Assembly (NCBI GenBank): GCA_021648085.1
Contig: JAKITS010000001.1
Span: forward strand, 324,948 to 388,947
From: Candidatus Magasanikiibacteriota bacterium
GTDB lineage: Bacteria > Patescibacteriota > Patescibacteriia > Magasanikbacterales > UBA922
DNA length: 64,000 nucleotides
Direction: 5' to 3'
The notes beneath the pieces were generated by a model that made no database searches, was not told the origin of the DNA, and saw only the letters and a list, made by a program, of their open reading frames with translations. Below, one piece after another: positions 1-34,840 of the stretch. Numbering within the stretch: position 1 is the stretch's first letter; the number at the start of each line of letters is the position of its first letter. Made by a program: the position numbers and the translations under genes.

Positions 1-1128
1 TGGTTTACTAAAAATAAAGGTCCTTTGTACTGCTTACGAATTTGCTTCCAGACCAAATCAATCAACCTACCTTTTTGAGCAGTGTTTTCATATTTTACAC
101 CAAGCTCATCTAATTTCTTTTTCAAATCATCTTCCGAAGAGGTTAAAATATCTATATCTAATTTTTCTTTAATTGCAGAAACATAATCAAGTCTTTTCCA
201 CTTCTCTCCAAGATCAATTTCACCAAATTCTTTTAGATTAAACTTTAAAGTTCCCCAAGTTTTTTTTGCAACAAACTTTATCATTCTTTCGGTCATTTCC
301 ATGTTATCTTCATAGTTTTTATACGCCCAATAAAATTCCATTTGGGTATAATCTTGAAGGTGTTCCCTACTTATTCCTTCATTTCTAAATTGGCGACCTA
401 TCTCAAAGGTCTTCTCAAAACCACCGACCATAAGTCTTTTTTGCCACAACTCCCCCATTGAAATACGCAAGAACACATCTATATCTAGTGCGTTGTGATG
501 AGTTGAAAATGGAGATGCCTCTGCTCCTCCAGTTGTGGTTTCTAATACTGGTGTCTCCACCTCCAAAAATCCTTCGTTTACTAAAAATTCACGAATTGCA
601 GACCAAAATGTGCTTTTTCTTCTGAAAAGCTCTTTTGATTCTTTATTCATTATCAAGTCTAAATATCTTTTTCTAAATTTTATTTCTTCATTTTGAAGTC
701 CATGAAACTTGTCTGGCAAAGGAAGGAGTGATTTTGAAAGCATTTTCCAATTACTAACCAAAAGTGATTTCTCTTCTGTTTTTGTAATAAAAAAATCACC
801 AGAAACTTCAATAATATCTCCAATGTCTACTTTTTTTACGAAAAGTTTATAATTTTCTTTCCCCAAGTTATCCTGCTTGAAAACCATTTGCATTCTTGCA
901 CTTTCGTCTTCAATTTGTATGAAAGTCAATTTACCGATTTCTCTTTTCATCATGATTCTACCTACACAAACAAATTTATCATCTTCTTTTCCTAATAATA
1001 CTTCTGAAAGTGTATTTGTTCTGTCTGTTTTTGCTGGATAAGAATTTATGTTTAATTCTTGTAAATCTTGTAATTTTTTAAGGCGAACTGAACGCTCGTC
1101 ATTTATATTTACTTCGTTTGTATTCATA
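1..1128 (-). CDS. lysS: lysyl-tRNA synthetase, class II (C-terminal part lies beyond window start)
   Basis: Minus-strand translation from ATG at 1126-1128 gives MNTNEVNINDERSVRLKKLQDL... and later FEIGRQFRNEGIS and ETPVLETTTGGAEASPF (class II LysRS motifs). The frame is open to the window edge. Confidence 0.85.
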
Positions 1129-4663: not shown

Positions 4664-5452
4664 CTATTCTTCATTTACAAAAGTGATTACAGAAACCAAA
4701 AACAATTTATCTAAATCACTAAGCGGTTGTAGGATAGCTTTTTGAAATGGTTGGTAAGGTTCTTTTTCTACAGCCTCCACAGTTCCTATCAAAAGACCTC
4801 TTGGAATTCTTGCCTCAAGCCCAGATGTAATAACGGTGTCGCCGATGTGAATAGTTTCATTTTGAGGAATTAAATTCATATGTACACTAATTCCATAACC
4901 ACCTTCAACCAAACCCATACTTGTATCTTTGTTTGTAAGCGTTCCTGCGATTTTACTCTGATTGTCATTTATTAGACGCACTACAGAAGTCGTGTCTTCA
5001 GATTTTATAATTTTTCCCACCAAAACACCGCCAGAGGCAATTACTGGATTTCCTATCTCTATCCCGTCTTTTTTTCCTTTGTTTAAAATTATTGAACTAC
5101 TGAAAGGTTCAAAATCTTTTCCTATAACCTGTGCACCAATATAATTAAATTTCTTGTCAATAAAAAAATTCAATTGTTCGCGCAATTGTTCATTCTCTTC
5201 TTCCAAAAGTATTAATTTTGCTCTATCTATTTTAAGTTTATTTAATTCTGTTTGAAGGTCTGGACACACTAAATTTTTATTTTGCTGTTCGTCTATATTT
5301 AGGCTAAGTTTGTAAACCGATCCAACACCACCATTAAAAATATCTCTAACAAAATTTTCAATTGGGCTTACCCAACCAGAAAAATGAAGTAGAATTGTTA
5401 AAAAAATTACAAAAGAAACCGCAATTATGGTTTTCTTTTTAGTTTTTCTCAT
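4664..5452 (-). CDS. mreC: rod shape-determining protein MreC
   Basis: N-terminal TM, a coiled-coil segment (LKIDRAKLILLEEENEQLREQL), then a beta-rich C-terminal domain. Immediately downstream of mreB. Confidence 0.75.
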   Translation of the reverse strand: MRKTKKKTIIAVSFVIFLTILLHFSGWVSPIENFVRDIFNGGVGSVYKLSLNIDEQQNKNLVCPDLQTELNKLKIDRAKLILLEEENEQLREQLNFFIDKKFNYIGAQVIGKDFEPFSSSIILNKGKKDGIEIGNPVIASGGVLVGKIIKSEDTTSVVRLINDNQSKIAGTLTNKDTSMGLVEGGYGISVHMNLIPQNETIHIGDTVITSGLEARIPRGLLIGTVEAVEKEPYQPFQKAILQPLSDLDKLFLVSVITFVNEE

Positions 5453-5504
5453 ATTTTATAAATAAATATTCCTTCTTTTCAGCCTAATTCTTAAATCCTG
5501 TAAG

Positions 5505-6572
5505 TTATCTAATTCTTCTTTTTTTATCATCTCTTGCAGAAGGAAGGGCCACTTCTTTTAAAAGTTTGTCATCCTCCAAAAGTACGCCAATTCCCCTAAC
5601 CACAGCAGTAAGTGGGTCGTCTACAATTCTCACAGATATGTTTGTGGCACGGGAGATAACTTTATCCAAACCACGCAAAAGAGATCCACCACCTGAAAGC
5701 ATAATTCCTCTTTCATGTATATCTCCTGTCAATTCCGGCGGTGTCGTTTCCAAAGTTATTTTTATCTGTTCTATTATTCCACTTATAGATCTCTCTAAAG
5801 CTTCTCGTACATGTTCATCGTTTATCATTATTTCTTTTGGAAGGCCTGTCATCACATCTCGCCCTCTCATCGGAAACTCAATAGACTCTTCCAGATTAGA
5901 GGCAGATCCCACTTTTATTTTAATATGTTCAGAATGACTTTCTCCAACAAAAAGATTAAAAACTTCTCTTGCATACTGTGTGATATTTCTATTCATCTCA
6001 TCGCCTGCGATTTGTGTAGATTTCCAACTTACAATTCCACTAAGCGATATTATTGCAACATCCGTAGTTCCACCACCAATATCAACTATCATATTTCCTA
6101 TAGGCTCTTGAATAAGCATACGCGAACCAATTGCTGCTGCCATTGGTTCTTGCACCACAAAAACTTCTTTTGCACCAGAAGAGATTACAGCGTCTTCCAC
6201 GGCTTTCATTTCTACCTCTGTCGCCTCAAGTGGAATGCAAACTATAACTCTTGGCCTAGCCATTATAAAAAAACCATTCTCGTAAACTTTATCTATAAAA
6301 TAGCGTATCATCTTTTCCGCAACTTCATAATCTGAAATAATTCCATTTGAAAGTGGTTTTGTCACCACAATATGCGAAGGAGTTTTACCAAGCATTCTTT
6401 TTGCTTCGTCTCCTACTGCCAAGATTTGTTCCGTCCTTGTATTTATTGCAACTACAGAAGGTTCGTTTATTACAATTCCTTTGTCTTTTATATAAACCAA
6501 AGTATTGGCAGTTCCCAAATCTATGCCGATATCTCGTGGTTTAAATTTTCCAAAAAAAGACTTTAAAGACAC
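5505..6572 (-). CDS. mreB: actin-like rod shape-determining protein MreB
   Basis: IGIDLGTANTLVY phosphate-1 motif and DIGGGTTD phosphate-2 motif. 355 aa. Confidence 0.92.
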   Translation of the reverse strand: MSLKSFFGKFKPRDIGIDLGTANTLVYIKDKGIVINEPSVVAINTRTEQILAVGDEAKRMLGKTPSHIVVTKPLSNGIISDYEVAEKMIRYFIDKVYENGFFIMARPRVIVCIPLEATEVEMKAVEDAVISSGAKEVFVVQEPMAAAIGSRMLIQEPIGNMIVDIGGGTTDVAIISLSGIVSWKSTQIAGDEMNRNITQYAREVFNLFVGESHSEHIKIKVGSASNLEESIEFPMRGRDVMTGLPKEIMINDEHVREALERSISGIIEQIKITLETTPPELTGDIHERGIMLSGGGSLLRGLDKVISRATNISVRIVDDPLTAVVRGIGVLLEDDKLLKEVALPSARDDKKRRIR

Positions 6573-22519: not shown

Positions 22520-22924
22520 TTATTTTAAACCATTTTCTTTGAAACATTTTACATATTTCTTATCCTCTTTATCCAAGTGGATGAGTAGCCAATCTATCAA
22601 ATGTTTTACTAATTTGTGTGTAACTTTTATTTTATTTTCGATATTTTCTTTTTTTAAATCTTGAATTTCTTTTATAAACTTATCGTGATATTTTTTATGA
22701 ATTTTTGCATTTTTATAGTGAAACTTATCAAAATAATCTTCTTCTGTTTTAAAATGAAATTTTATATGTTCTAAAACCTCCTCAAACATCCCAGAGATTA
22801 AATCCTTGGATTTTGGGATATCCACAGTATCATTAAATCTATTTACAATTTCTACAAATTTTTTATGCTGTTCATCTATAATATCAATCCCCAAACTATA
22901 TTCTTTCTTCCAAAAAAATGACAT
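22520..22924 (-). CDS. hemerythrin-like (HHE cation-binding) protein
   Basis: W-x-G-IDIID-x-QH-KKF N-terminus and downstream H/E/D ligand pattern typical of bacteriohemerythrin. Confidence 0.75.
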   Translation of the reverse strand: MSFFWKKEYSLGIDIIDEQHKKFVEIVNRFNDTVDIPKSKDLISGMFEEVLEHIKFHFKTEEDYFDKFHYKNAKIHKKYHDKFIKEIQDLKKENIENKIKVTHKLVKHLIDWLLIHLDKEDKKYVKCFKENGLK

Positions 22925-23021: not shown

Positions 23022-26000
23022 TTATTTATTTCTTTTAAATCTATAAACTATTTTTCTACGAATTCTTTTGAAGCTTTCTGCTCCAGACTCAACCCATTGG
23101 TATAGAATTGGAGTCATAAACAATGATAATATTGCTGAAGACAAAATTCCAAATATAATAGACGCTGCCAATCCTTTCCAGAATGGAGATAAGAATACAA
23201 GTGGCGCCAAACTTCCAAGTGCAGTAAGTTGTGTTAAAATAATAGGTCTAAACCTTACAGTCACTGCAGTAGAAATAGCTTCTGCTGTACTCTTCCCTGT
23301 TCTCTTCAGTTGGTTTGCATAATCAATAAGCAAAATGGTCACATTTACCACAATTCCTGCCATTGTGACAACACCAAGCAACTCCAAAAATCCAAGCTGT
23401 CCAGTTGTAATCCAAAGTGCAAAGAATACTCCAACCAATCCAAGTGGAATCGCAAACAAAATGATAAATGGTTTTATATAAGACTTGAAAAATCCAACTA
23501 ACAAAACATAAATCATAAATATTGCAATCGCCAAAGCAACAAGCAAATCTGTAAAGGATTGTGTAATAGAATCTGCAGTTCCTTCATAATTAAGTGCATC
23601 TTCACTCAACCCCAACTCTTCCAATTTTTCTTTTGATAGATAATCTTCCAAATCATTTTGGATTTTTCCAGAATCACCACCATCTTTTACAGATGCATAA
23701 ACTTCTACATATCTATCGCCGTTCACACGCTGAATCGTAGTTGATTCTTTATTTTCTTTTTCAGAAATAATATCTGCCACAGTCACAACTTCTGGTTTTT
23801 CTACAAACCTCTCTGGATTTTGAATTCCTTGTACTCTCATTTTAGTCAAGGTTTGTTCATAAATCACTTCTTCCATTGTTGGAACTGGAATATCTAGTAA
23901 ATCCTGTTCAGAAACAATCTCTGGTGTAATCTTTGAAATAATCTCATAATTCTTACCGTTCAATTCAATATCACCCAATTCATTTTCAGCCAAACGCTCA
24001 TTTAGTGAAGAATAGATCAAAAATGGATTTTGTGCATTTTTATTTTCAACATCCAAGACGAGTGTAATTGCTCCACCAGAACTTCCTTCTGAAACATTAT
24101 CTTCCACGCGTTCAATATCTTCTATTCCACTCAAATATGCTTTAATATCTTCTACTGCTATCATCAAAGATTCGGTCTCATCCCCCATCAATCTTACACG
24201 AATTGGAAATGAATCTTGCGGAGGACCTTCGCCATTTGTAGAAGCTTTAATATCCGCATCCAGATTTAATTCTTCAAAAGAATTATTCATAAACTCTGCA
24301 ACTTCGTCCGAAGTTCGCATTTCTTTATCAGCTCTTTCATTTATTGATAGTAATTGCGCTAGTATTACAAATGAATTTCCATTTTGTTGATAAAAACTAA
24401 AATTCTCTATTTCTGGAGTATTTTTCAAAACATCTTGAACCGGAACAACAATATCATAAACAGCCTTTTCAAAAGACCATTCATTTGAAATGTCACCTTC
24501 TATCAAAAGAAATACAGCATCTTTGGATGAAGAAAACTGCACAACCTCAATAGCACCTGTTTTTATAAGTACTCCACCAGAAATAAACGGGAGAGATAGA
24601 ATTGTAAAAAATAAGACTATTCTTAGCACAAACCTTGGTTTTGTCTTACCCAAAAGCCATTTTATACTTTTGCCAATCCACTGCCCAACCTTCCATGTTC
24701 CTATAATTTCACTATCAATCCCTTCTACATTTACTATACTGCGTTTTTTGAATATTCTTGCCGCAAGCGATGTAAAAAATATTGCTGGAATTACCATAGA
24801 AGCAACCATTGCCGGAATAACAGTTGCTGGAATATATTTGATAATTTCACCAAAAAATCCAGAAACAATACCAAACGGTACAAAAACTAAGATATTTGTA
24901 GAAACTGCCAAAAACACACCAGATCCTACAGTATTCCAAGTCTTTGCAGCAGATTCACGAGCTGAAAAACCCTGATCTTTGAAGCGTTGCAGTGACTCCA
25001 AAAATACAATACTTGGGTCTATCACAAGTCCAATAGTCAATACCATTGAAAATAAAACCAAAGTATTCATCTCAATTCCAACAGAATTTAAATAAATAAA
25101 AGAGAAAAATAATGAAAGTGGAATGGACGCTGCAGCAAGCAATGCTACACGCAAATTCATAAACAAAAGCAAAAGTAACACTACAAATGCAAGCCCACCA
25201 AACATATAACCCAAAAATCCAAGCTTTCCCCAACCATCTATATTCCCACCAAAAATACTCTGTGTAATCTCCTCAATTTGACGACGAGTATCGTCTGCTT
25301 GATTATAAAGCATCACATATTTTCCAAATTCCTCCTCATTTAGCTCTGCCAAAACAATTCTGATACTATCGTCTAAATCCAAAATATCTGCCCCGCTTTC
25401 CATTTTTATAGCATAAACCAAAGAACGCTCCACGCTTAATTTTTCTTTATTTTCCTCTCTAAATCCAGTACGGTTATAAAAATCATTATTGTTTAATGTT
25501 GTGCTAATTTCTGCGATATCTGCCAAAACAATACCCTCTCCAACAACAAAATTTTTCACATCATCCAGAGTCGAAATACTCTTTTCCAATATAATACTAA
25601 CAGACTCATCGTCTCCATTAAAAGAGCCTGCTGGAGCTTTAAATTCTGCCATGGCCAATGCATCTTCTACTTGCTTACGAGAAAGACCTTTTTCAACCAA
25701 CCTATCGTTATCAAAAGAAATTACTACCTGAGGTGTCAATTCATTTTGAACATTTACCTCCTTTACACCATCTAATTTTTGCAATATACTTTGCAATTCA
25801 TTTCCTTTACTATATAGTTCCCACTCATCTCCATAGCCTGTAATTCCAAGCAAAAACTCTCCAGGACCTGCTACAGAAAATTTATTCACCACAGGATCTT
25901 TTGCACCTTCTGGCAATTTTACTCCTGCCATTTTTGTATTCAAATCTGCAATTGCGTCATTTACATCTGCTTTTGCATCAAATGTCACAATCGCTGTACC

Positions 26001-26282
26001 AAAAGAATTTCCAGCAATAGTTTTATATTCCTCCACATCCTCCATTTCTTTTAAAGTATTCTCCAATGGAATCAAAACCTCTTTTTCCACCTGCGTTTCA
26101 CTTGCGTTTGGGTATACTACATTTACACTAGCAATATTTACATTCACATCTGGAAATCCTTGTTTTTGCATTTGTGAAACAGAAATTCCGCCAAATACAA
26201 CTAAGAATACAAATACCAAAAAAAGTATTTTTCCATTATTAAATAGAATATCTATAAATTTATTTTTTACATTTTCAGGCAT
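23022..26282 (-). CDS. RND-superfamily exporter (AcrB/HAE-like, 12-TM, two large periplasmic loops)
   Basis: 1086 aa. N-terminus shows the AcrB pattern (QYP..V..P.V.V...YPGA...VE). No adaptor or outer-membrane partner gene adjacent. Confidence 0.85.
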   Translation of the reverse strand: MPENVKNKFIDILFNNGKILFLVFVFLVVFGGISVSQMQKQGFPDVNVNIASVNVVYPNASETQVEKEVLIPLENTLKEMEDVEEYKTIAGNSFGTAIVTFDAKADVNDAIADLNTKMAGVKLPEGAKDPVVNKFSVAGPGEFLLGITGYGDEWELYSKGNELQSILQKLDGVKEVNVQNELTPQVVISFDNDRLVEKGLSRKQVEDALAMAEFKAPAGSFNGDDESVSIILEKSISTLDDVKNFVVGEGIVLADIAEISTTLNNNDFYNRTGFREENKEKLSVERSLVYAIKMESGADILDLDDSIRIVLAELNEEEFGKYVMLYNQADDTRRQIEEITQSIFGGNIDGWGKLGFLGYMFGGLAFVVLLLLLFMNLRVALLAAASIPLSLFFSFIYLNSVGIEMNTLVLFSMVLTIGLVIDPSIVFLESLQRFKDQGFSARESAAKTWNTVGSGVFLAVSTNILVFVPFGIVSGFFGEIIKYIPATVIPAMVASMVIPAIFFTSLAARIFKKRSIVNVEGIDSEIIGTWKVGQWIGKSIKWLLGKTKPRFVLRIVLFFTILSLPFISGGVLIKTGAIEVVQFSSSKDAVFLLIEGDISNEWSFEKAVYDIVVPVQDVLKNTPEIENFSFYQQNGNSFVILAQLLSINERADKEMRTSDEVAEFMNNSFEELNLDADIKASTNGEGPPQDSFPIRVRLMGDETESLMIAVEDIKAYLSGIEDIERVEDNVSEGSSGGAITLVLDVENKNAQNPFLIYSSLNERLAENELGDIELNGKNYEIISKITPEIVSEQDLLDIPVPTMEEVIYEQTLTKMRVQGIQNPERFVEKPEVVTVADIISEKENKESTTIQRVNGDRYVEVYASVKDGGDSGKIQNDLEDYLSKEKLEELGLSEDALNYEGTADSITQSFTDLLVALAIAIFMIYVLLVGFFKSYIKPFIILFAIPLGLVGVFFALWITTGQLGFLELLGVVTMAGIVVNVTILLIDYANQLKRTGKSTAEAISTAVTVRFRPIILTQLTALGSLAPLVFLSPFWKGLAASIIFGILSSAILSLFMTPILYQWVESGAESFKRIRRKIVYRFKRNK

Positions 26283-26663: not shown

Positions 26664-27569
26664 TTAAGAAGATTTTTTACCTTTTAACTTTTTAAGTTCT
26701 TTTTTTAAATCCACCATTTTCATCTCTCTTTCTGATATAAGTTTTTCTATTTTTTTAGATTTAATTTTATCCTTTTTCTTTCTTTTTTTATCTTTTTCTT
26801 TTTTTGTAATATCCTCAAAAATTGTCACAAACTTGTCTTTTCCAACTTTATAGGCTGATATAGAATAATGCCTCCCAAGCTCTTTACTAAATTGATCGAA
26901 TTTTATACTTTTACCAGATGAGATAACCTTTCCATAAATTTTTATAAAATTAGAATTTCTTATACCAGGTATCACATCTGTTACTTTTTTATTTAATACC
27001 TCATCTTTCTTCAGTCCTGTTAATTTTTCAAAAGCTGGGTTAATACCTAAAAAAATATAATCTTTAGGTCTATTGTGTTTATTGAATAGCATTTTATGAA
27101 ATGCTATTCCAAAAGGAGAATTTTCTACCAAAAGCTTATTATATTTATTATTTTTTGCTAATTCTTTTTCTATCTTTTTTCTTTTTGAAATATCTCGCAC
27201 TGTCGCCTGAAGAGCTGGCTCGCCTTTAATTTTTAAGCGACTTAACAAAACCTCTGCTGGAAAATTCTTTCCACTTGATGTTTTATGCACCCACTCAAAA
27301 AACTGTCTTCCCTCGTCAAATGCTTTTTTAATATATTTGTTTGCTTTTTCAAAAGAATTTTTACCGTCTGGCTGTTTTGCTGGAGACAAATCTGACGGAT
27401 GTGTTTTTACAAACTCTTCTACTGAGTCTATTTCAAATAAATCTAATGTTGTCTTATTACAATCAAAAAAACCTTTTTTATTCAAAAGCATTATTGCATC
27501 TCTTGAAGTTTCAAACAGGGATTTGTAATTTACTTGTTTTCTAAGTTTTTTATGAGATCGTTCTTTCAT
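26664..27569 (-). CDS. PAS-domain protein (two PAS-like repeats plus Lys-rich C-terminal tail, no output domain)
   Basis: Two PAS-like segments (FETSRDAIMLL... and LLVENSPFGIAFH... with ATVRDISKRKK and IFEDITKKEK caps). Confidence 0.6.
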   Translation of the reverse strand: MKERSHKKLRKQVNYKSLFETSRDAIMLLNKKGFFDCNKTTLDLFEIDSVEEFVKTHPSDLSPAKQPDGKNSFEKANKYIKKAFDEGRQFFEWVHKTSSGKNFPAEVLLSRLKIKGEPALQATVRDISKRKKIEKELAKNNKYNKLLVENSPFGIAFHKMLFNKHNRPKDYIFLGINPAFEKLTGLKKDEVLNKKVTDVIPGIRNSNFIKIYGKVISSGKSIKFDQFSKELGRHYSISAYKVGKDKFVTIFEDITKKEKDKKRKKKDKIKSKKIEKLISEREMKMVDLKKELKKLKGKKSS

Positions 27570-28670: not shown

Positions 28671-30869
28671 CTAATCAAGCTTCCTCCTTTTCAAAAGTAA
28701 AGAATTCAAAACAACAGAAATACTACTCATGGCCATCGCAAGCCCAGCATATTCTGCTTTCAAAAGTCCTAGTGCGGCAATTGGAATTCCCACACTATTA
28801 TAAAACAATGCCCAAAACATATTTTGTCTTATTTTACTCATAGTCATCCTACTCAGACGAATTGCCTTCACAGCATCCAAAATATCATTTTTCACCAACA
28901 CGATATCTCCAGATTCTATTGCCACATCTGTACCGCTACTCATAGCAATTCCAAGATCTGCTTGAGCCAAAGCCGGCGCGTCATTTATCCCATCTCCAAC
29001 CATTGCAACAAGCTCGCCTTTTTCTTGAATTTTCTTTATTTCTCCTGCTTTTTCTTCGGGCATTATTTCTGCCAAAACTTTGTCTATCCCAACTTTTTTT
29101 GCTATTGCTTCAGCTGTTTTCTTGTTATCTCCCGTCATTATTACACTTTTTATACCCATTTTATGTAGAAGTTTCAAAGCCTTTTTAGATGTTTTCTTCA
29201 CTGTATCTGCCACCGCCACCAAACCAATTACTTCTTTTTCTACTCCCACTATCATTACTGTTTTTCCCTCGCCTTCCAACTTGCTTTTTTTATTTTTCAG
29301 ATGAGATTCAAACTTTATACCATTTTTTTGCATAAATTTTTCAGTCCCCACATAAACTTCTTTTTTATCTATTACTCCACAAATTCCACTTCCTGGCACA
29401 GCTCTAAATTTACTCACCTCACTCAATTTAATTTTATCTTCTGCTGCTTTTTTCAATATAGCATCTGCCAAAGAATGCTCAGAATTTTTTTCCAAAGATG
29501 CAGACAAGCTCAACAATTCGGTTTTCTTTATTTCTTTTTTCGCAATAACCAAATTGGTCACAACAGGTTTTCCTTTGGTCAAAGTTCCAGTTTTATCAAA
29601 AACAACAGTTTTTACTTTTCCCGCAATTTCCAAGGCTTCACCTGTTTTTATCAAAATTCCATTTTCAGCACCTTTGCCAGTTCCCACTATAATTGCAGTA
29701 GGCGTCGCCAAACCAAGCGCGCATGGACAAGCTATAACAAGCACGGCGGTAAACGCAAGAAGTGCTGAAACGAAAGTAGAGCCGACTACAAAAAACCAAA
29801 CCACAAATGTCACAATCGCAATCACAACAACCGTTGGAACAAAATAGCTAGAGATTTTGTCGGCATATTTTTGAATTGGAGCTTTTGAACCTTGTGCCTC
29901 TTCTACCACTTTTATAATATGCGACAAAACTGTGTCTGCCCCAACTTTTTCTGCTTTAAATGTAAAACTTCCATTTTTGTTTATTGTTGCACCAATTACA
30001 TCACTTCCCTTCTTTTTGTCCACTGGAATACTTTCTCCAGAAATCATAGACTCATCTACTGCAGATCGTCCGTTCAAAACAACACCATCAACAGGAATTT
30101 TTTCACCGGGACGAATTACTATAGTATCCCCTACTTTTACACTTTCTATTTTAACCTCTACTTCTTTTCCATTTTTCAAAATCCTCGCAGTTTTTGCCTG
30201 CAAACCAATCAATTTTTTTATAGCGTCTCCTGCTTTTCCTTTTACCCTAGCTTCTAGCCATTTTCCCAAAACTATAAAAGTTATAAGCAAAGCTGAAGTC
30301 TCAAAAAACACCTCTCCACCCAAAATATAAGTAGATGCTAAACTATAAAAATATGCTGCACTCGTCCCAACTGCAACCAAAGTATCCATATTTGCAGTTT
30401 TGTTGCGCGTTGCATAATACATTCCTCTATAAAATCTGTAACCTATTCCAAATTGAATTATTCCTGCGAGCACAGATTGAACGACTAAACTTCCAAAAGA
30501 TTTGTTCATCAAAAACATACTCAAAATCAAAACAGGCAATGCCAAAAATGCACTTAGTAAAAATAAGTTGCGCTCTTTTTTTATTTCTTTTTTGGTATCA
30601 ATTTTTGAATGGTTGTGGTTATTAATATTTAAACCTTCTTCACCTTTCTTTTTTGATACCACCCCAACCATCTTATATCCACTTTTCTTTATTACCCTCT
30701 CTACTTCACTTGCATCCAAATCACCCTCTATTGTCGCTTTTTGTGTAGCATAATTTACATTCGCACGTTTTACACCTTTTAATTTTGATAAGTTTTTTTC
30801 TATTGTTATCGCACAAGACGCGCAGTGCATCCCTTCTATTCCATACTGTTTAATTTCTTTTTTATCCAT
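28671..30869 (-). CDS. copA: copper-translocating P1B-type ATPase
   Basis: N-terminal HMA domain GMHCASC, CPC in TM6, DKTGTLT, and GDGINDAPAL. 732 aa. Confidence 0.93.
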   Translation of the reverse strand: MDKKEIKQYGIEGMHCASCAITIEKNLSKLKGVKRANVNYATQKATIEGDLDASEVERVIKKSGYKMVGVVSKKKGEEGLNINNHNHSKIDTKKEIKKERNLFLLSAFLALPVLILSMFLMNKSFGSLVVQSVLAGIIQFGIGYRFYRGMYYATRNKTANMDTLVAVGTSAAYFYSLASTYILGGEVFFETSALLITFIVLGKWLEARVKGKAGDAIKKLIGLQAKTARILKNGKEVEVKIESVKVGDTIVIRPGEKIPVDGVVLNGRSAVDESMISGESIPVDKKKGSDVIGATINKNGSFTFKAEKVGADTVLSHIIKVVEEAQGSKAPIQKYADKISSYFVPTVVVIAIVTFVVWFFVVGSTFVSALLAFTAVLVIACPCALGLATPTAIIVGTGKGAENGILIKTGEALEIAGKVKTVVFDKTGTLTKGKPVVTNLVIAKKEIKKTELLSLSASLEKNSEHSLADAILKKAAEDKIKLSEVSKFRAVPGSGICGVIDKKEVYVGTEKFMQKNGIKFESHLKNKKSKLEGEGKTVMIVGVEKEVIGLVAVADTVKKTSKKALKLLHKMGIKSVIMTGDNKKTAEAIAKKVGIDKVLAEIMPEEKAGEIKKIQEKGELVAMVGDGINDAPALAQADLGIAMSSGTDVAIESGDIVLVKNDILDAVKAIRLSRMTMSKIRQNMFWALFYNSVGIPIAALGLLKAEYAGLAMAMSSISVVLNSLLLKRRKLD

Positions 30870-30956: not shown

Positions 30957-31838
30957 CTACTTTTTATCACTTAATATTACTGTGTTTGTATCTAAATCTT
31001 TATAATTAACACCAATAACATCCAAATCTCTAAATATAAACACACCGTCATCTTCTACACTTCCAACTTTAGACCAAACATTACGCAAAGAATTGTAATC
31101 TCCAGCCTCTTTTGACATTATTATTGTTGGAACAGACTTTATATTATATCTATCTATCAATTCCTGCCCCTCCAAATCTGAAATATCAACAAGTTTTTCA
31201 CTAGCAAATACAATTCCAAATCTTTGCAAAATAGGTTTTTGTGTCTGAACGACATCAAAACACACATCACAAGTCTTGTCAACTATATATATTGTATTTA
31301 CTAAACCAACCGTCTTGTTTGAAGTATTATCAAAGAAAGGAAGTTTTGTTTTTTCCCATACCAATGTTTTTTCTTCGAATAGTCGTAAATTATTTTTAAA
31401 CGCTCTTGATAACTTACTTTTTATATTTTCTTCAGACTGAAATATTAATGCGGGAAGTTTACTTATATTTAATTTTTTTATCAATTCTTTTGCTGTGTCA
31501 TCATTTGCAAAAATAACTTTGTCATCTAAAATTTCAATATTTTGCGCGAGTAAAACTGTTTTTTCTTCTAACATATCCCCACAACTCTCACAATCCAAAG
31601 GCTTAATAAGTGTCAAGGTTCCTTCTTGCGGTTTTGCAATATCAACCGCTTCGCCCAATTTACTGTTTACAGAAAAGGTAAATAGTGCCATTGCAATAAT
31701 ATTTACAACAACCACAATCGCAAAAAATATAATAAGGTTTCGTGTTAAATTCTTTTTCAATTTTGATAGAATTTTTATATTTTTATATTTTTTTTCACTA
31801 CAACAATCCACAATCTTTTTTTTATTTATATCTGTCAT
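30957..31838 (-). CDS. membrane-anchored thioredoxin-fold protein with two CxxC motifs (CESC, CDVC)
   Basis: N-terminal TM, then two repeats each carrying CxxC and a conserved cis-Pro context (KSVPTI). Confidence 0.55.
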   Translation of the reverse strand: MTDINKKKIVDCCSEKKYKNIKILSKLKKNLTRNLIIFFAIVVVVNIIAMALFTFSVNSKLGEAVDIAKPQEGTLTLIKPLDCESCGDMLEEKTVLLAQNIEILDDKVIFANDDTAKELIKKLNISKLPALIFQSEENIKSKLSRAFKNNLRLFEEKTLVWEKTKLPFFDNTSNKTVGLVNTIYIVDKTCDVCFDVVQTQKPILQRFGIVFASEKLVDISDLEGQELIDRYNIKSVPTIIMSKEAGDYNSLRNVWSKVGSVEDDGVFIFRDLDVIGVNYKDLDTNTVILSDKK

Positions 31839-31858: not shown

Positions 31859-32044
31859 TTAACAACCACCAACCATTTCTGGCGATGAGCCATCATCTGT
31901 AAAACTAACAGAAGTAGGCGAAGAACCAATTCCAATCTCAGCCTCATTTATATTCTTGCTCATATCTACAAGCATAAATGTCTGATAAGATGATACCGCA
32001 ATTGCTAAAACCAACATTATAGTTAGAGTTTTTTGTGAAAACAT
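31859..32044 (-). CDS. small secreted or membrane protein ending in SPEMVGGC
   Basis: 61 aa. N-terminal hydrophobic segment. The C-terminal 6 codons are encoded by the same 17-nt string TTAACAACCACCAACCA that ends the next gene. Confidence 0.4.
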   Translation of the reverse strand: MFSQKTLTIMLVLAIAVSSYQTFMLVDMSKNINEAEIGIGSSPTSVSFTDDGSSPEMVGGC

Positions 32045-32065
32045 ATTTTATTATTTAGAAATTAA

Positions 32066-32794
32066 TTAACAACCACCAACCATTCCAGGTGATTTTATGT
32101 CTGGCTTAAATCCAGAATTTTTTGCTTTTTCTTTTAGATTTTTCAACTCATCTTCGCTCAAATTCATTGTCAAATACTTTATGTCTGAAGTAAATTTTTC
32201 AACCTCTCCAGAAAGTGAATTTGCCATACGCTCTTGCATTTGAGATGGAAAATACATTCCCTTTTGCCGCATAAGCTCATACGCAATTTCAGCATCCGTC
32301 ATTTCTGGATAATTTCTAATTAAATACGCAGCTGTGCCACGCATTGCAATAGAATGTGCACAACCACAGGTTGGAGAGCCATCTTTTCGCACCAAAGTTT
32401 TTACACCACAACAAAATTCACATGTAATATACGGCTCTGTCCCTATTTTTACATACCTTTCCATCTCCTCTTTATTCAATTCAATCGGATTAGAACCTTG
32501 CATTGGTGCCATTATAGACAACTTCTTTATAGATGCATTTATAGCGTTTATACTAGACATATCCAAACCAAGCTCTACTCCATAAAATGGCATTTCTGTT
32601 GGTGTCACTAAAATAGCAACATCTTTTGCAAAGTCTCCAGTCATAATCATACCGTCCATATTGTGAGAACCAATCATTTGTGAGCCTACCTGCATTGCAA
32701 GTGCCTGATTTGCTATCAGCACAAAACCAACCACAACAATTGCCACCTTTTGAAATAAAAGATGGATATTTTTATTTAAAACATATTTTTTCAT
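32066..32794 (-). CDS. Met/His- and Cys-rich putative metal-binding protein ending in SPGMVGGC
   Basis: Signal/TM N-terminus, Met-rich stretch (GSQMIGSHNMDGMIMTG), Cys cluster (CEFCCG...CGCAHS), C-terminal MVGGC. Confidence 0.55.
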   Translation of the reverse strand: MKKYVLNKNIHLLFQKVAIVVVGFVLIANQALAMQVGSQMIGSHNMDGMIMTGDFAKDVAILVTPTEMPFYGVELGLDMSSINAINASIKKLSIMAPMQGSNPIELNKEEMERYVKIGTEPYITCEFCCGVKTLVRKDGSPTCGCAHSIAMRGTAAYLIRNYPEMTDAEIAYELMRQKGMYFPSQMQERMANSLSGEVEKFTSDIKYLTMNLSEDELKNLKEKAKNSGFKPDIKSPGMVGGC

Positions 32795-32811: not shown

Positions 32812-33252
32812 TTACCAATCTCTACAACACGCAATAATTTGCTCAACTGTTTTTTTAATTTTTGGACTATTTCTCATAAAAAATAAACTCAAAAATATAA
32901 ACCAAACAATCAACAAAAATATAATCGTGTCAACCCAAAACTTATTTTGATCAAGAAAAAAAGCTATAAAAACAATAGATGACAATAAAAAAGGTAGTCT
33001 AAATATATGCCATTTATTTTTTAACTTTCTTTCCAATAAATAATAAAAACCTATCGTACTTTGCCCCATAAGAATTCCTATTACTAAAGGATTGTCAAAC
33101 AAGCCTTTCCAAAAAAGAAAAAGTAATACAATCCAAGCAATAGAAATACTTGCACAAATAGCACAGACCTTAAGTTTTATTATTTGTTTTATAATCAAAA
33201 TTAATAAAAATAAAACTGTAATTAAGACTATTGCAACAATTAGTGAATTCAT
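32812..33252 (-). CDS. small polytopic membrane protein with CAIC motif in TM and C-terminal CC
   Basis: 146 aa, 4 TM. Sits in the copper/redox operon. Confidence 0.45.
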   Translation of the reverse strand: MNSLIVAIVLITVLFLLILIIKQIIKLKVCAICASISIAWIVLLFLFWKGLFDNPLVIGILMGQSTIGFYYLLERKLKNKWHIFRLPFLLSSIVFIAFFLDQNKFWVDTIIFLLIVWFIFLSLFFMRNSPKIKKTVEQIIACCRDW

Positions 33253-33776
33253 AGTGTCAATTGCACAATTAAAGAGAACAAAACCAAAAGACTAAATGTA
33301 ATAATAATGCCTTGATAAGGAATTAACTTTCCATTACGCTTTTCTTTTATATACATACTCAAATACGGAGATGCGTACATAATCAAAGTTCCAACAATAA
33401 CACCAACAATAAATTTATTGTACATATAAGTACGGTTCAAAAGAGATCCGTATTCACCAAATAAATATAAATTGAAAGATTGATATTCTGTAATTAACGG
33501 CATAATTGGAATAATTGTAGACAAAAAAACAAGAGTAATAATTATCTGTTTTTGATATTTTATATATTGTTTTTTTACTATTCTCTCTATCCACAAACTA
33601 AGTGCCAAAGCAAAAGCTCCTATAAACATACCGACAATAATAGTAGACACACCCAAATATGCAGCACCGACAGCAAGCGCGCCCGCGCCCGCTGTACACA
33701 GCGGACAATGGGCTTTTGCAATAGTTGGCACAAACAAACCGATAGAAAGAAATGATACAGCTATTTTTTTATTCAT
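33249..33776 (-). CDS. membrane protein with N-terminal HCPLC motif
   Basis: 175 aa. CxxC at the start of the first TM region. Overlaps its neighbours by 4 nt. Confidence 0.45.
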   Translation of the reverse strand: MNKKIAVSFLSIGLFVPTIAKAHCPLCTAGAGALAVGAAYLGVSTIIVGMFIGAFALALSLWIERIVKKQYIKYQKQIIITLVFLSTIIPIMPLITEYQSFNLYLFGEYGSLLNRTYMYNKFIVGVIVGTLIMYASPYLSMYIKEKRNGKLIPYQGIIITFSLLVLFSLIVQLTL

Positions 33777-33785
33777 ATTTTAAAA

Positions 33786-34271
33786 TTACAACTGCATAAA
33801 TTCTGAAGTTCCACCATCATCCATTTGGTAAATTGTAAACAATCCCTTTTTTGAACCTGGCATCCCAGGAGAACCAACTGGCATTCCAGGCATTGCAATT
33901 CCATTTACACTAGGTTTTTCTTCCAAAAGTTTATTTACAGCCTTAACTGGAATATGACCTTCTACAACATAACCATCGTTTATTATTGTTGTATGACAAC
34001 TCTCCATATTTCCTGGTATATTATGTTCATTTTTTATTGTATCCATATCATCTGTTTCTATCATTTCCACTTCAAATCCATTGCGACGAAGATATGAGAC
34101 ATAGTTTGCACAACAACCACAGCTTGGAGATTTATAAACTGTAGCTGTTTTTGCAGACACATTTTCTACACCACCACTAACTCCTTTTTTTGTTATTCCA
34201 ATTCCAGAAATCCAAGCCCCAAATACTAATACTGCAACAGACAAACCAATAATTTTTGTTTTCTTTTTCAT
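33786..34271 (-). CDS. DUF411/CopG-like periplasmic copper-binding protein
   Basis: SPSCGCC and ESCHT motifs plus MPGMPVGSPGMPG Met-Pro repeats. Typical of copper-resistance-operon DUF411 proteins. Confidence 0.65.
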   Translation of the reverse strand: MKKKTKIIGLSVAVLVFGAWISGIGITKKGVSGGVENVSAKTATVYKSPSCGCCANYVSYLRRNGFEVEMIETDDMDTIKNEHNIPGNMESCHTTIINDGYVVEGHIPVKAVNKLLEEKPSVNGIAMPGMPVGSPGMPGSKKGLFTIYQMDDGGTSEFMQL

Positions 34272-34367: not shown

Positions 34368-34748
34368 TTACCAAGTTTTTGGATGAAGTATGCCTATCTT
34401 AAATAGACGAGAAAAATAATTGAAAAAGCTGAAATCACCAAAGCGTGACCGAACTCGTTTTAAATATAAATAAAAATTATCATTTTTTAGCGAACTAAAA
34501 ATAAATGATAGAAAAATAGAAAAAACTAAAGAAAAAAGTATTTTTTCAAATGGATTGGAAGTTAAAACAAAATCATACATATGCATTCCCAAATTTACTG
34601 TATATTGCTCTGTGCAACAAGGCATATCATGGTCTGAAGAATTTTGCATACCAGAAAAAGCCATAGCAACAGAACCACCAAAACAAGAAACTATAAGAGC
34701 TATAAATACTCCTATTGAGAATAAGATTTTCCAATTCATTTTTTTCAT
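34368..34748 (-). CDS. hypothetical membrane protein with MPCC motif
   Basis: 126-aa ORF with N-terminal TM. First gene of the island. Confidence 0.4.
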   Translation of the reverse strand: MKKMNWKILFSIGVFIALIVSCFGGSVAMAFSGMQNSSDHDMPCCTEQYTVNLGMHMYDFVLTSNPFEKILFSLVFSIFLSFIFSSLKNDNFYLYLKRVRSRFGDFSFFNYFSRLFKIGILHPKTW

Positions 34749-34793
34749 AGTCTATATATTATAACAAATTTTTTAAAAAGTACAATGCTTTTA

Positions 34794-34832
34794 AAACAAA
34801 AACAAACCTATTCAAAGGTTTGTTTTTGTTTT
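34794..34832. terminator. long hairpin terminator AAACAAAAACAAACC-loop-GGTTTGTTTTTGTTT
   Basis: 15-bp stem. A near-identical stem recurs at 41666-41702. Confidence 0.65.
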
Positions 34833-34840
34833 AAAAGTTT

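Follow-up and report, generated by a model that had tools for sequence, protein, structure and literature searches.

A pair of adjacent genes with a common C-terminal tail

This analysis concerns a pair of adjacent genes in a stretch of 64,000 nucleotides (nt) from contig JAKITS010000001.1 of a Candidatus Magasanikiibacteriota bacterium; the whole stretch is referred to as the window. Two open reading frames (ORFs) encoding proteins of 242 and 61 amino acids (aa) follow each other on the minus strand, separated by 21 nt, and are called the large and the small gene (Table 1). A sequence-only reading of this DNA had pointed them out as neighbours with a common C-terminus, and both were confirmed as described. 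The two proteins end in S-P-x-M-V-G-G-C followed by the stop codon, with Gly at position x in the large and Glu in the small protein. The string ATGGTTGGTGGTTGTTAA is common to both gene ends (32066..32083 and 31859..31876); the identity noted before is real, but it extends over 18 nt instead of 17. Further copies with up to three mismatches were not found in the window, the expected number was 0.04, and two or more copies were obtained in 0 of 100 shuffles. Apart from the two tailed ORFs, no ORF within the 64 kb ends in GGC. The DNA likeness between the two genes is limited to about 27 nt, which encode S-P-x-MVGGC and the stop codon.

The two proteins had been regarded as unrelated apart from the tail. 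This did not hold, because both have an N-terminal transmembrane (TM) anchor with a conserved motif containing Gln at its end, Q-x-x-Q-L in the small protein; the corresponding site of the large protein has the similar N-Q-x-Q-I. The small protein looks like a version of the large one without the globular domain.

Conservation of the tail and of the gene pair

The 242-aa protein is 100% identical to the hypothetical protein L3J07_01780 of a Ca. Magasanikbacteria metagenome-assembled genome. Homologs of the large protein, 75 in number and down to 28% identity, were found in Patescibacteria (Magasanik- and Peregrinibacteria) and in DPANN archaea (Woese- and Aenigmarchaeota). A profile of the small family, built from six proteins, matched 587 clusters, of which 120 proteins of 61-84 aa were listed. 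It had been suggested that other proteins ending in MVGGC be looked for, and this end was indeed present in all of them: the exact C-terminus [M/Q][V/I]GGC in 75/75 large homologs and MVGGC in 120/120 listed small homologs. The opposite outcome that had been considered, namely that the motif occurs nowhere else and that the small ORF is not conserved, clearly does not apply.

An exhaustive profile search with the large protein yielded 305 representative clusters, and 147 distant representatives were fetched. The canonical tail was present in 113 of the 147, and most of the others had relaxed versions (MVGSC, MAGGC, QQGGC, MVGEC, FVGSC and others) that keep the Cys as last residue and a Gly at position -3 (..G-x-C-COOH). 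The last residue is the most conserved position of the tail (L)P-x-M-V-G-G-Cys-COOH.

In every complete genomic context, bacterial as well as archaeal, a tailed gene of 61-78 aa lies directly 3' of the large gene. The order large-then-small was found in 54 of 55 loci, often with a distance of 1 nt, and the pairing recurred in a sample that was chosen independently of the tail. Altogether, the pair, with its shared tail and the small gene directly after the large one, is present in 112 non-redundant genomes of Patescibacteria (the candidate phyla radiation, CPR) and DPANN archaea. Together, the two genes make up the core of an extracytoplasmic module that is conserved in both groups and had not been described; the pattern of conservation indicates that the tail is a conserved functional element. 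Full-text searches of the literature revealed no description of the MVGGC tail, of the CEFCCG/CEYCCG motif of the large protein, or of the module.

Some module contigs (loci are denoted by L numbers) are found in bins labelled 'uncultured Methanosarcinales', 'Udaeobacter', 'Binatia' or 'Gammaproteobacteria' (L014, L020, L027, L031, L052, L057, L066, L077, L088 and others). These labels are probably binning or taxonomy errors, as the gene content looks DPANN/CPR-like.

Restriction of the tail to two protein families

One genome per species, representing 185,579 species, was scanned at the DNA level for P-x-M-V-G-G-C-stop, which yielded at least 120 loci. About 90 of them carry real genes, and all of these resolve into the large or the small family. 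At about 30 loci no ORF lies behind the match; they belong to ordinary bacteria (Paenibacillus, Gemmataceae, Polaromonas and others), and roughly 280 chance matches would be expected over the whole collection. Among the matches listed, the real tail loci carry labels of DPANN archaea or Patescibacteria, with a few bins probably mislabelled; the 'other' tail-bearing ORFs turned out to be CCS/CDYCC motif variants or N-extended small proteins, and the lone outsider, a 511-aa Cytophagales protein ending in MMVGGC, looks like a chance hit.

Judged from these sequences, the tail appears to be specific to one two-gene module, which argues against a sorting signal common to many substrates. A general sorting tag was rejected, since among the scan matches listed the tail is restricted to two families. 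The GlyGly-type sorting or processing tag on diverse substrates that the sequence-only reading had in mind is thus not borne out, the remaining matches listed being chance hits, and the co-occurring peptidase or transferase for which it had proposed to look was not found among the constant neighbours of the module.

Relation between the two tails of one genome

In the other genomes, the 18-mer differs in 65 of 70 large/small pairs, with a mean of 2.6 differences within and 3.2 between genomes. Tail codons for the same residue differ in 50% of cases within a genome and in 65% between genomes. Because the 18-mer differs in nearly all pairs elsewhere, and because the codon usage of the window gives a probability of ~0.02 that two independent MVGGC-stop tails come out identical, the exact DNA identity of the two window tails is incidental, and the peptide is what is conserved. 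A recent duplication, a gene conversion or a chance ORF with a functionless shared end would account for the 18-nt identity in the window and for the slightly smaller number of synonymous differences within than between genomes (0.50 vs 0.65). However, more than 100 genomes from two domains of life have kept the pair and both tails while the synonymous sites diverged, and the small family has hundreds of clusters. The probability of this explanation is practically negligible. Recent local duplication or gene conversion was rejected on the synonymous-site differences between the tails, and the functionless local duplication that had been named as a fallback is refuted by conservation together with synonymous divergence.

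The tails of one genome vary together. The last five residues are identical in 108 of the 112 non-redundant pairs. In nine pairs, one or both tails deviate from MVGGC, and in five of these both tails share the departure: QQGGC/QQGGC in L132, QVGGC/QVGGC in L169 and L181, MAGGC/MAGGC in L175, and MSGGC/MSGGC in L197. The nucleotide sequences of these shared-departure tails differ at 2-9 of 27 positions, namely at 5-9 in four pairs and at 2 in L175, where a recent conversion may have occurred. The residue x of LPxM is identical in 38 of the 112 pairs, whereas 2000 shuffles of the partners gave 16 on average and 30 at most. The representatives with variant tails are mostly contigs of 1-2 kb, and the genomic context was informative at L132 only.

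In addition, large proteins without a tail exist. Five long-form proteins (L019, L024, L035, L051 and L062) stop right after the last core helix, the large protein of L088 is likewise tail-less, and in each of the six cases a tailed small protein is encoded 3' of the large gene. Because the tails co-vary and tail-less large proteins keep a tailed small partner, both tails are probably read by a common partner, and the small protein probably supplies the tail in trans. The suggestion that the 61-aa protein is a minimal carrier version thereby gains support, as the tail-less large proteins still precede a tailed small protein. Loci of Uhrbacteria encode a small protein and a thioredoxin-like protein (see below) without a large protein, and therefore the small protein has a role that is independent of the large domain. 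The co-varying tails and the supply of the tail in trans represent a built-in signature of functional coupling. Conservation, cross-domain distribution and co-variation of the tails are solid and unexpected.

The large protein

The invariant columns of the large family are Y71, C125-x-x-C128-C129-G130, C143-x-C145-x-H147, K178, P183 and G240-G241-C242. The core thus contains five invariant Cys and one His (CxxCC...CxCxH), with the motif variants CEFCCS, CEYCCS, CDFCCG and CDYCCG in some proteins. Exactly six Cys, the five of the core and the terminal one, are present in 145 of 162 short-form large proteins. The AlphaFold2 (AF2) model is confident and all-alpha, with a predicted local distance difference test score (pLDDT) of 89.6 and a predicted template modelling score (pTM) of 0.79. 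Neither a structural relative of the model (Foldseek, best E = 1.6, TM-score < 0.2) nor a sequence relative (profile search, best E = 0.17) was found in the PDB, and neither the large nor the small protein matched a Pfam or NCBIfam family at E <= 0.1.

The number of Lys and Arg residues flanking the TM anchor is 2.5 before and 0.9 after the helix, and in 14 of 182 family members the N-terminus is extended by a long hydrophilic stretch and has no signal peptide. Because of this positive-inside bias and of the extensions, the domain is predicted to lie outside the cell; the sequence features support an N-in/C-out orientation with an extracytoplasmic domain.

Many bacterial members of the large family carry an extra N-terminal domain with four TM helices and an invariant C...C-P-x-C-P motif. 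It corresponds to residues 1-150 of homologs of about 387 aa such as P0004, and the C-P-x-C-P/Q lies inside a TM helix. Archaeal long forms in which this domain is fused to the large protein are encoded at L019, L035, L051 and L062. The AF2 model of a 385-aa long form had a pLDDT below 50 over the extra domain and was not interpretable there.

The small protein

The small protein consists of the TM anchor, a low-complexity linker and the (L)P-x-MVGGC tail. The linker has a median length of 37 residues, about 52% of which are Ser, Gly, Ala or Thr. All 120 proteins listed contain exactly one Cys, the last residue; 118 of the 120 are free of His, and Met residues are few. Variants with a cytoplasmic N-terminal extension or an inserted repeat exist. 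One or two copies of the repeat GKIDMSGWTENEKMNYDHHGTIPARL, which contains His-His, are inserted between anchor and tail in L125 (872..1291) and in the small gene of L116 (oriented 5354..5602). A family member of L113 (3301..3765, minus strand) has a His/Cys-rich cytoplasmic N-terminal extension, HNEEHHDENNNCCENHEH, which hints at metal sensing or binding inside the cell. Gene callers miss the mini-protein inconsistently: the 61-aa gene is called in the NCBI record (L001) and was missed in the ENA assembly of identical DNA (L002, 9199..9384).

Neighbours of the module and the gene island of the window

Neighbouring genes were counted in 8-kb loci of two samples, 91 loci selected on the tail and 47 independent loci selected on the core motifs only. 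The most frequent neighbour is a TM-anchored thioredoxin-like protein, which was found in 74/91 and 45/47 loci, mostly at positions +1 to +3 on the same strand. It has two or three tandem folds; three CxxC motifs, typically without any other Cys, are present in 40 of 64 proteins. Its best relatives in the PDB and in NCBIfam are archaeal protein disulfide oxidoreductases (PDOs), albeit with marginal scores (E ~0.01; 26 bits vs a cutoff of 185). Membrane proteins of the DsbD_TM/CcdA type (PF02683/PF13386) occur in 39/91 and 27/47 loci. DUF1573-type proteins with an immunoglobulin (Ig)-like fold, which were counted in the independent sample only, occur in 21/47 loci, and all 39 DUF1573-like proteins contain a TSCxCT motif with a CxC pair. 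Less frequent neighbours are an HCPLC membrane protein (17/91 and 12/47), DUF411/CopG (12/91 and 10/47) and P-type ATPases (8-9/91 and 4/47). BlaI- and BlaR1-type regulators were found in 18 and 17 of the 91 loci and in 11 and 11 of the 47; the M56 (BlaR1-type) peptidase (17/91 and 11/47) is usually encoded on the opposite strand together with a BlaI-type repressor and looks regulatory. Now and then, ArsP_1 permeases, a cysteine desulfurase or a rhodanese fusion are encoded near the module.

In the window, eight genes from 34748 to 28671 lie on one strand with gaps of at most 96 nt (Table 1). A promoter/terminator scan of this island revealed no signal above shuffles and no convincing internal terminator. 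Because thioredoxin-like and CcdA neighbours are common and copper genes are present in only about 10% of the loci, the core association of the module is thiol-redox, and the copper context of the window is lineage-specific. A copper system as core function was downgraded after the neighbours had been counted.

Table 1. Genes and tail-coding segments of the window's island
Feature	Position	Strand	Remarks
Membrane protein, 126 aa (DHDMPCC)	34368..34748	-	First gene of the string; homologs in 2/91 loci, weakly associated
DUF411 (CopG-type), C-G-C-C	33786..34271	-	PF04214, E = 2e-25; copper-linked accessory gene
Membrane protein, 175 aa, N-terminal H-C-P-L-C	33249..33776	-	Homologs in 17/91 and 12/47 loci; recurrent accessory
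Polytopic membrane protein, 146 aa, CAIC and C-terminal CC	32812..33252	-	Homologs in 6/91 and 11/47 loci; Patescibacteria accessory neighbour
Large protein, 242 aa	32066..32794	-	ORF; N-terminal TM anchor, all-alpha domain, tail S-P-G-M-V-G-G-C242
Tail-coding segment of the large gene (S-P-G-M-V-G-G-C-stop)	32066..32092	-	Tail kept in 75/75 homologs
Small protein, 61 aa	31859..32044	-	ORF; TM anchor, Ser/Gly/Ala/Thr-rich linker, tail S-P-E-M-V-G-G-C61
Tail-coding segment of the small gene (S-P-E-M-V-G-G-C-stop)	31859..31885	-	Co-varies with the tail of the large protein
Membrane-anchored protein, two thioredoxin-like folds (CESC, CDVC)	30957..31838	-	Weak Thioredoxin/PDO matches; immediately 3' of the small gene
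P1B-type (CopA-like) heavy-metal ATPase, HMA domain	28671..30869	-	Pfam E1-E2_ATPase/HMA; ends the same-strand string

A proposed Cys carrier arm in an extracytoplasmic thiol relay

Most likely, the module is an extracytoplasmic thiol relay with a Cys carrier arm, built from two undescribed protein families. The mechanism that we propose, a terminal-Cys carrier arm that is SoxY-like in action and works within a split DsbD-like extracytoplasmic thiol relay, stands about an even chance of being correct. The terminal Cys would be the reactive group on a sequence-specific, flexible swinging arm, which the small protein would supply in trans and the large protein, with its own tail, in cis. Both arms would be recognized by one common docking site, which the thioredoxin-like protein, the Cys/His centre of the large protein, or both would provide. 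The arm would cycle between the thiol and a mixed disulfide (or a persulfide, or a metal-thiolate), and cytoplasmic reducing power would reach it via CcdA and then the thioredoxin-like protein. The CcdA-like conduit, the thioredoxin-fold CxxC protein and the Ig-like CxC protein would represent the three parts of DsbD as separate genes, and both tailed proteins would be clients or terminal carriers of the relay. In the copper-export island of the window (CopA and the CopG-like DUF411), its output may be the protection or handling of thiols and Cu(I) at the cell surface.

For the carrier part of this proposal, SoxY is the closest functional precedent. SoxY ends in GGCGG and is a soluble Ig-like protein that is paired with SoxZ and encoded together with soxAXB(CD). 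Pathway intermediates are covalently carried on the Cys of its swinging arm and are presented to several partners; the arm Cys can also cross-link two carriers by a disulfide, and all this takes place outside the cytoplasm (PMC5336275). The module resembles SoxY in having a lone Cys beside Gly at a mobile C-terminal end; the tail ends in ..G-G-C, with the sole Cys of all 120 small proteins listed. In contrast to SoxY, the tail ends in the Cys itself (MVGGC-COOH), and the carriers are TM-anchored. Membership in the SoxY family was not found: there is no Pfam/NCBIfam match, the large domain is all-alpha, and the small protein is a TM helix plus linker. Nor were soxZ, soxAX or soxB present among the recurrent neighbours of the module. 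The resemblance to SoxY, like that to DsbD-type relays, is one of function and context, an analogy and not membership.

The relay part has its counterparts in Dsb-type systems. DsbD is organized as a membrane conduit, a thioredoxin-fold CxxC part and an Ig-like part with a Cys pair (PMC2631958), and CcdA, Etrx and MsrAB2 of S. pneumoniae form an extracellular pathway from CcdA via thioredoxin to the client (PMC3914529); such systems transfer reducing power across the membrane to its outer side. A conduit, a thioredoxin-fold CxxC protein and an Ig-like Cys-pair protein all recur next to the module pair. However, the module parts are separate genes, the thioredoxin-like protein has two or three tandem folds, the Ig-like part is of the DUF1573 type with a CxC, and CcdA is missing from about half of the module loci and from the island of the window. 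Among known Dsb and Ccm systems, nothing corresponds to the large and small tailed proteins, the apparent clients. Archaeal PDOs (PDB 1a8l, 1j08) also have a CxxC in each of their tandem thioredoxin folds, but the partner of the module is membrane-anchored and extracytoplasmic, often has three folds, and contains acidic C-[x]-[D/E]-C motifs.

Mobile C-terminal tails for redox or metal shuttling are also present in high-Mr thioredoxin reductase (-Gly-Cys-Sec-Gly), MerA (a Cys pair) and Erv2 (CGC). These proteins are flavoenzymes whose tails have two redox-active residues, move reactive thiols between a buried centre and partners outside, and can act in trans on a second subunit. In contrast, the module tail has one Cys, a separate gene supplies it, and there is neither a flavin signature nor a likeness of fold.

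An extended version of the proposal, which we consider possible and yet tentative, regards the small protein as a thiol cofactor that is made by the ribosome and tethered to the membrane, a peptidyl carrier arm with one Cys. Together with the cis-arm, it would move electrons, sulfane sulfur or Cu(I) back and forth between a DsbD-type relay in split form and extracytoplasmic Cys/His-centre enzymes of a new class, and CPR bacteria and DPANN archaea would share the system through horizontal transfer. Such a cofactor could compensate for missing small-molecule thiols and a missing classical Dsb system in reduced genomes, if such a lack is assumed.

Several points weigh against the proposed carrier-arm relay. 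Its chemistry, be it transfer of electrons, sulfur or metal, is read from gene context alone. CcdA was found in only about 45-60% of the 8-kb loci; otherwise its gene may be located in another part of the genome or missing altogether, and the window's island has no DsbD_TM/CcdA gene. An arm with a single Cys would need a separate resolving partner, and the centre of five Cys and one His could be purely structural, e.g. a Zn site. The model of the large protein has a pLDDT of only 64-78 over its last 12 residues. For the small protein, the K/R statistics are ambiguous (2.1 vs 1.9), so that its orientation is less certain than that of the large protein, and the archaeal small protein has a possible V-Q-A signal-peptidase site and might be released instead of tethered. 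Furthermore, some of the co-variation of the tails could stem from old gene conversion followed by drift.

Three other functions of the tail were weighed. It might handle metal, as had already been considered on the basis of the sequence: Met and the terminal Cys of one or two tails would bind Cu(I) or another soft metal from the adjacent P1B ATPase and exchange it with the Cys/His centre of the large protein, and the small protein would be a tethered metallochaperone arm. This is consistent with the location of the pair between CopA and DUF411/CopG, among other Cys-motif membrane proteins, in the window and its closest relatives, with an archaeal locus that has an ArsR-regulated P-type ATPase nearby, with the retention of Met in most tails, and with the resemblance of CxxCC...CxCxH to the ligand set of a metal cluster. 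However, a P-type ATPase is present at no more than 8/91 and 4/47 loci and DUF411 at 12/91 and 10/47, the small protein, with its one Cys, lacks His and mostly also any further Met, and several genomes have Gln in place of Met in both tails. Variability is the rule in simple metal-binding tails, but the module tail is conserved like a docking peptide over 8-13 residues. HMA/CopZ-type chaperones (ferredoxin-like fold, MxCxxC) offer no parallel, as neither tailed protein has an HMA match and the large domain is all-alpha. We regard a metal-handling tail as unlikely; the idea is kept alive by the conserved Met and the copper context of the window, and weakened by the single Cys of the small protein and by copper genes at about 10% of the loci. 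Alternatively, the tail Cys could complete the centre of the large protein, as a sixth ligand of a metal or Fe-S centre or by forming a catalytic disulfide with the unpaired core Cys; the small protein would then serve as an exchangeable lid, as a regulator or as a maturation factor instead of a carrier. The number of core Cys is odd (five) and is made even by the terminal one, in line with the exactly six Cys of 145/162 large proteins; tail-less large proteins always keep a tailed small partner; and the tail region of the model has intermediate confidence and is not disordered. On the other hand, the Uhrbacteria loci with a small and a thioredoxin-like protein but no large protein speak for a role of the small protein that is independent of the large domain, and no cofactor is known for the large protein, so that we consider this explanation rather improbable.

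A C-terminal signal for sorting, processing or attachment, in which a dedicated enzyme would recognize LPxMVGGC and either cut it or attach the Cys to lipid or to the cell wall, would fit the extreme C-terminal position and strict conservation of the tail, the LP-x reminiscent of LPXTG, and the BlaR1-type M56/M48 peptidases of some loci. A short conserved C-terminal Gly-Gly or LP-x motif is indeed shared with the GlyGly-CTERM/rhombosortase and LPXTG/sortase systems. In contrast to GlyGly-CTERM, the TM helix and the basic cluster are absent, and both window proteins as well as the 75 large and 120 listed small homologs stop at the Cys; likewise, in contrast to LPXTG, nothing follows LPxMVGGC-COOH, neither a hydrophobic segment nor a positive tail. 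Both proteins already have a membrane anchor, the tail is confined to two families among the scan matches listed, the M56 peptidase looks regulatory, and neither a rhomboid-like gene (among the recurrent neighbours in the 91 and 47 loci) nor a conserved sortase-like gene was found nearby. This possibility is therefore very unlikely.

A large share of microbial diversity belongs to the CPR bacteria and DPANN archaea, of whose surface biochemistry little is known. The module is compact and spans two domains of life; it combines a large protein of unknown fold with an invariant Cys/His centre, a mini-protein and a multi-thioredoxin partner. The only evident functional group of the mini-protein of about 65 aa is its last residue. 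If the tail is a carrier arm, the module would be a second, independent case of the SoxY-type principle of a cysteine on a swinging arm, and it would offer a handle on extracellular thiol redox, sulfur or copper stress management in CPR and DPANN organisms. For annotation, two new families and a diagnostic motif, ...P-x-M-V-G-G-C-stop, are gained.

Further features of the module loci and of the window

A lipoprotein-like ORF of about 68 aa with the lipobox L-A-G-C and an internal, conserved P-Y-V-G-G-G-C-G-V was found in 12/91 loci, usually directly after the small gene (e.g. L048, oriented, 513..719, and L064, 1686..1895). In the archaeal form of the module it adds a third small protein with Gly-Gly-Cys, and this motif comes nearer to the GGCGG of SoxY. 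An unannotated family of about 206 aa is present in 23/91 module loci (e.g. L112, 1479..2099); it has a C2H2 zinc-finger-like N-terminus, a TM helix and an extracytoplasmic domain with H-W-H-P-H ... H-T-H-E.

In the window, a perfect 20-bp AT-rich inverted repeat with a loop of 6-8 nt (34789..34836) lies between a DEAD-box helicase gene and the start of the island, and is likely a bidirectional terminator. A double-PAS protein (26664..27569), an AcrB-type RND transporter (23022..26282) and a hemerythrin-domain protein (22520..22924) are encoded near CopA. The RND pump is notable in a genome of the Patescibacteria, a group that is thought to lack an outer membrane.

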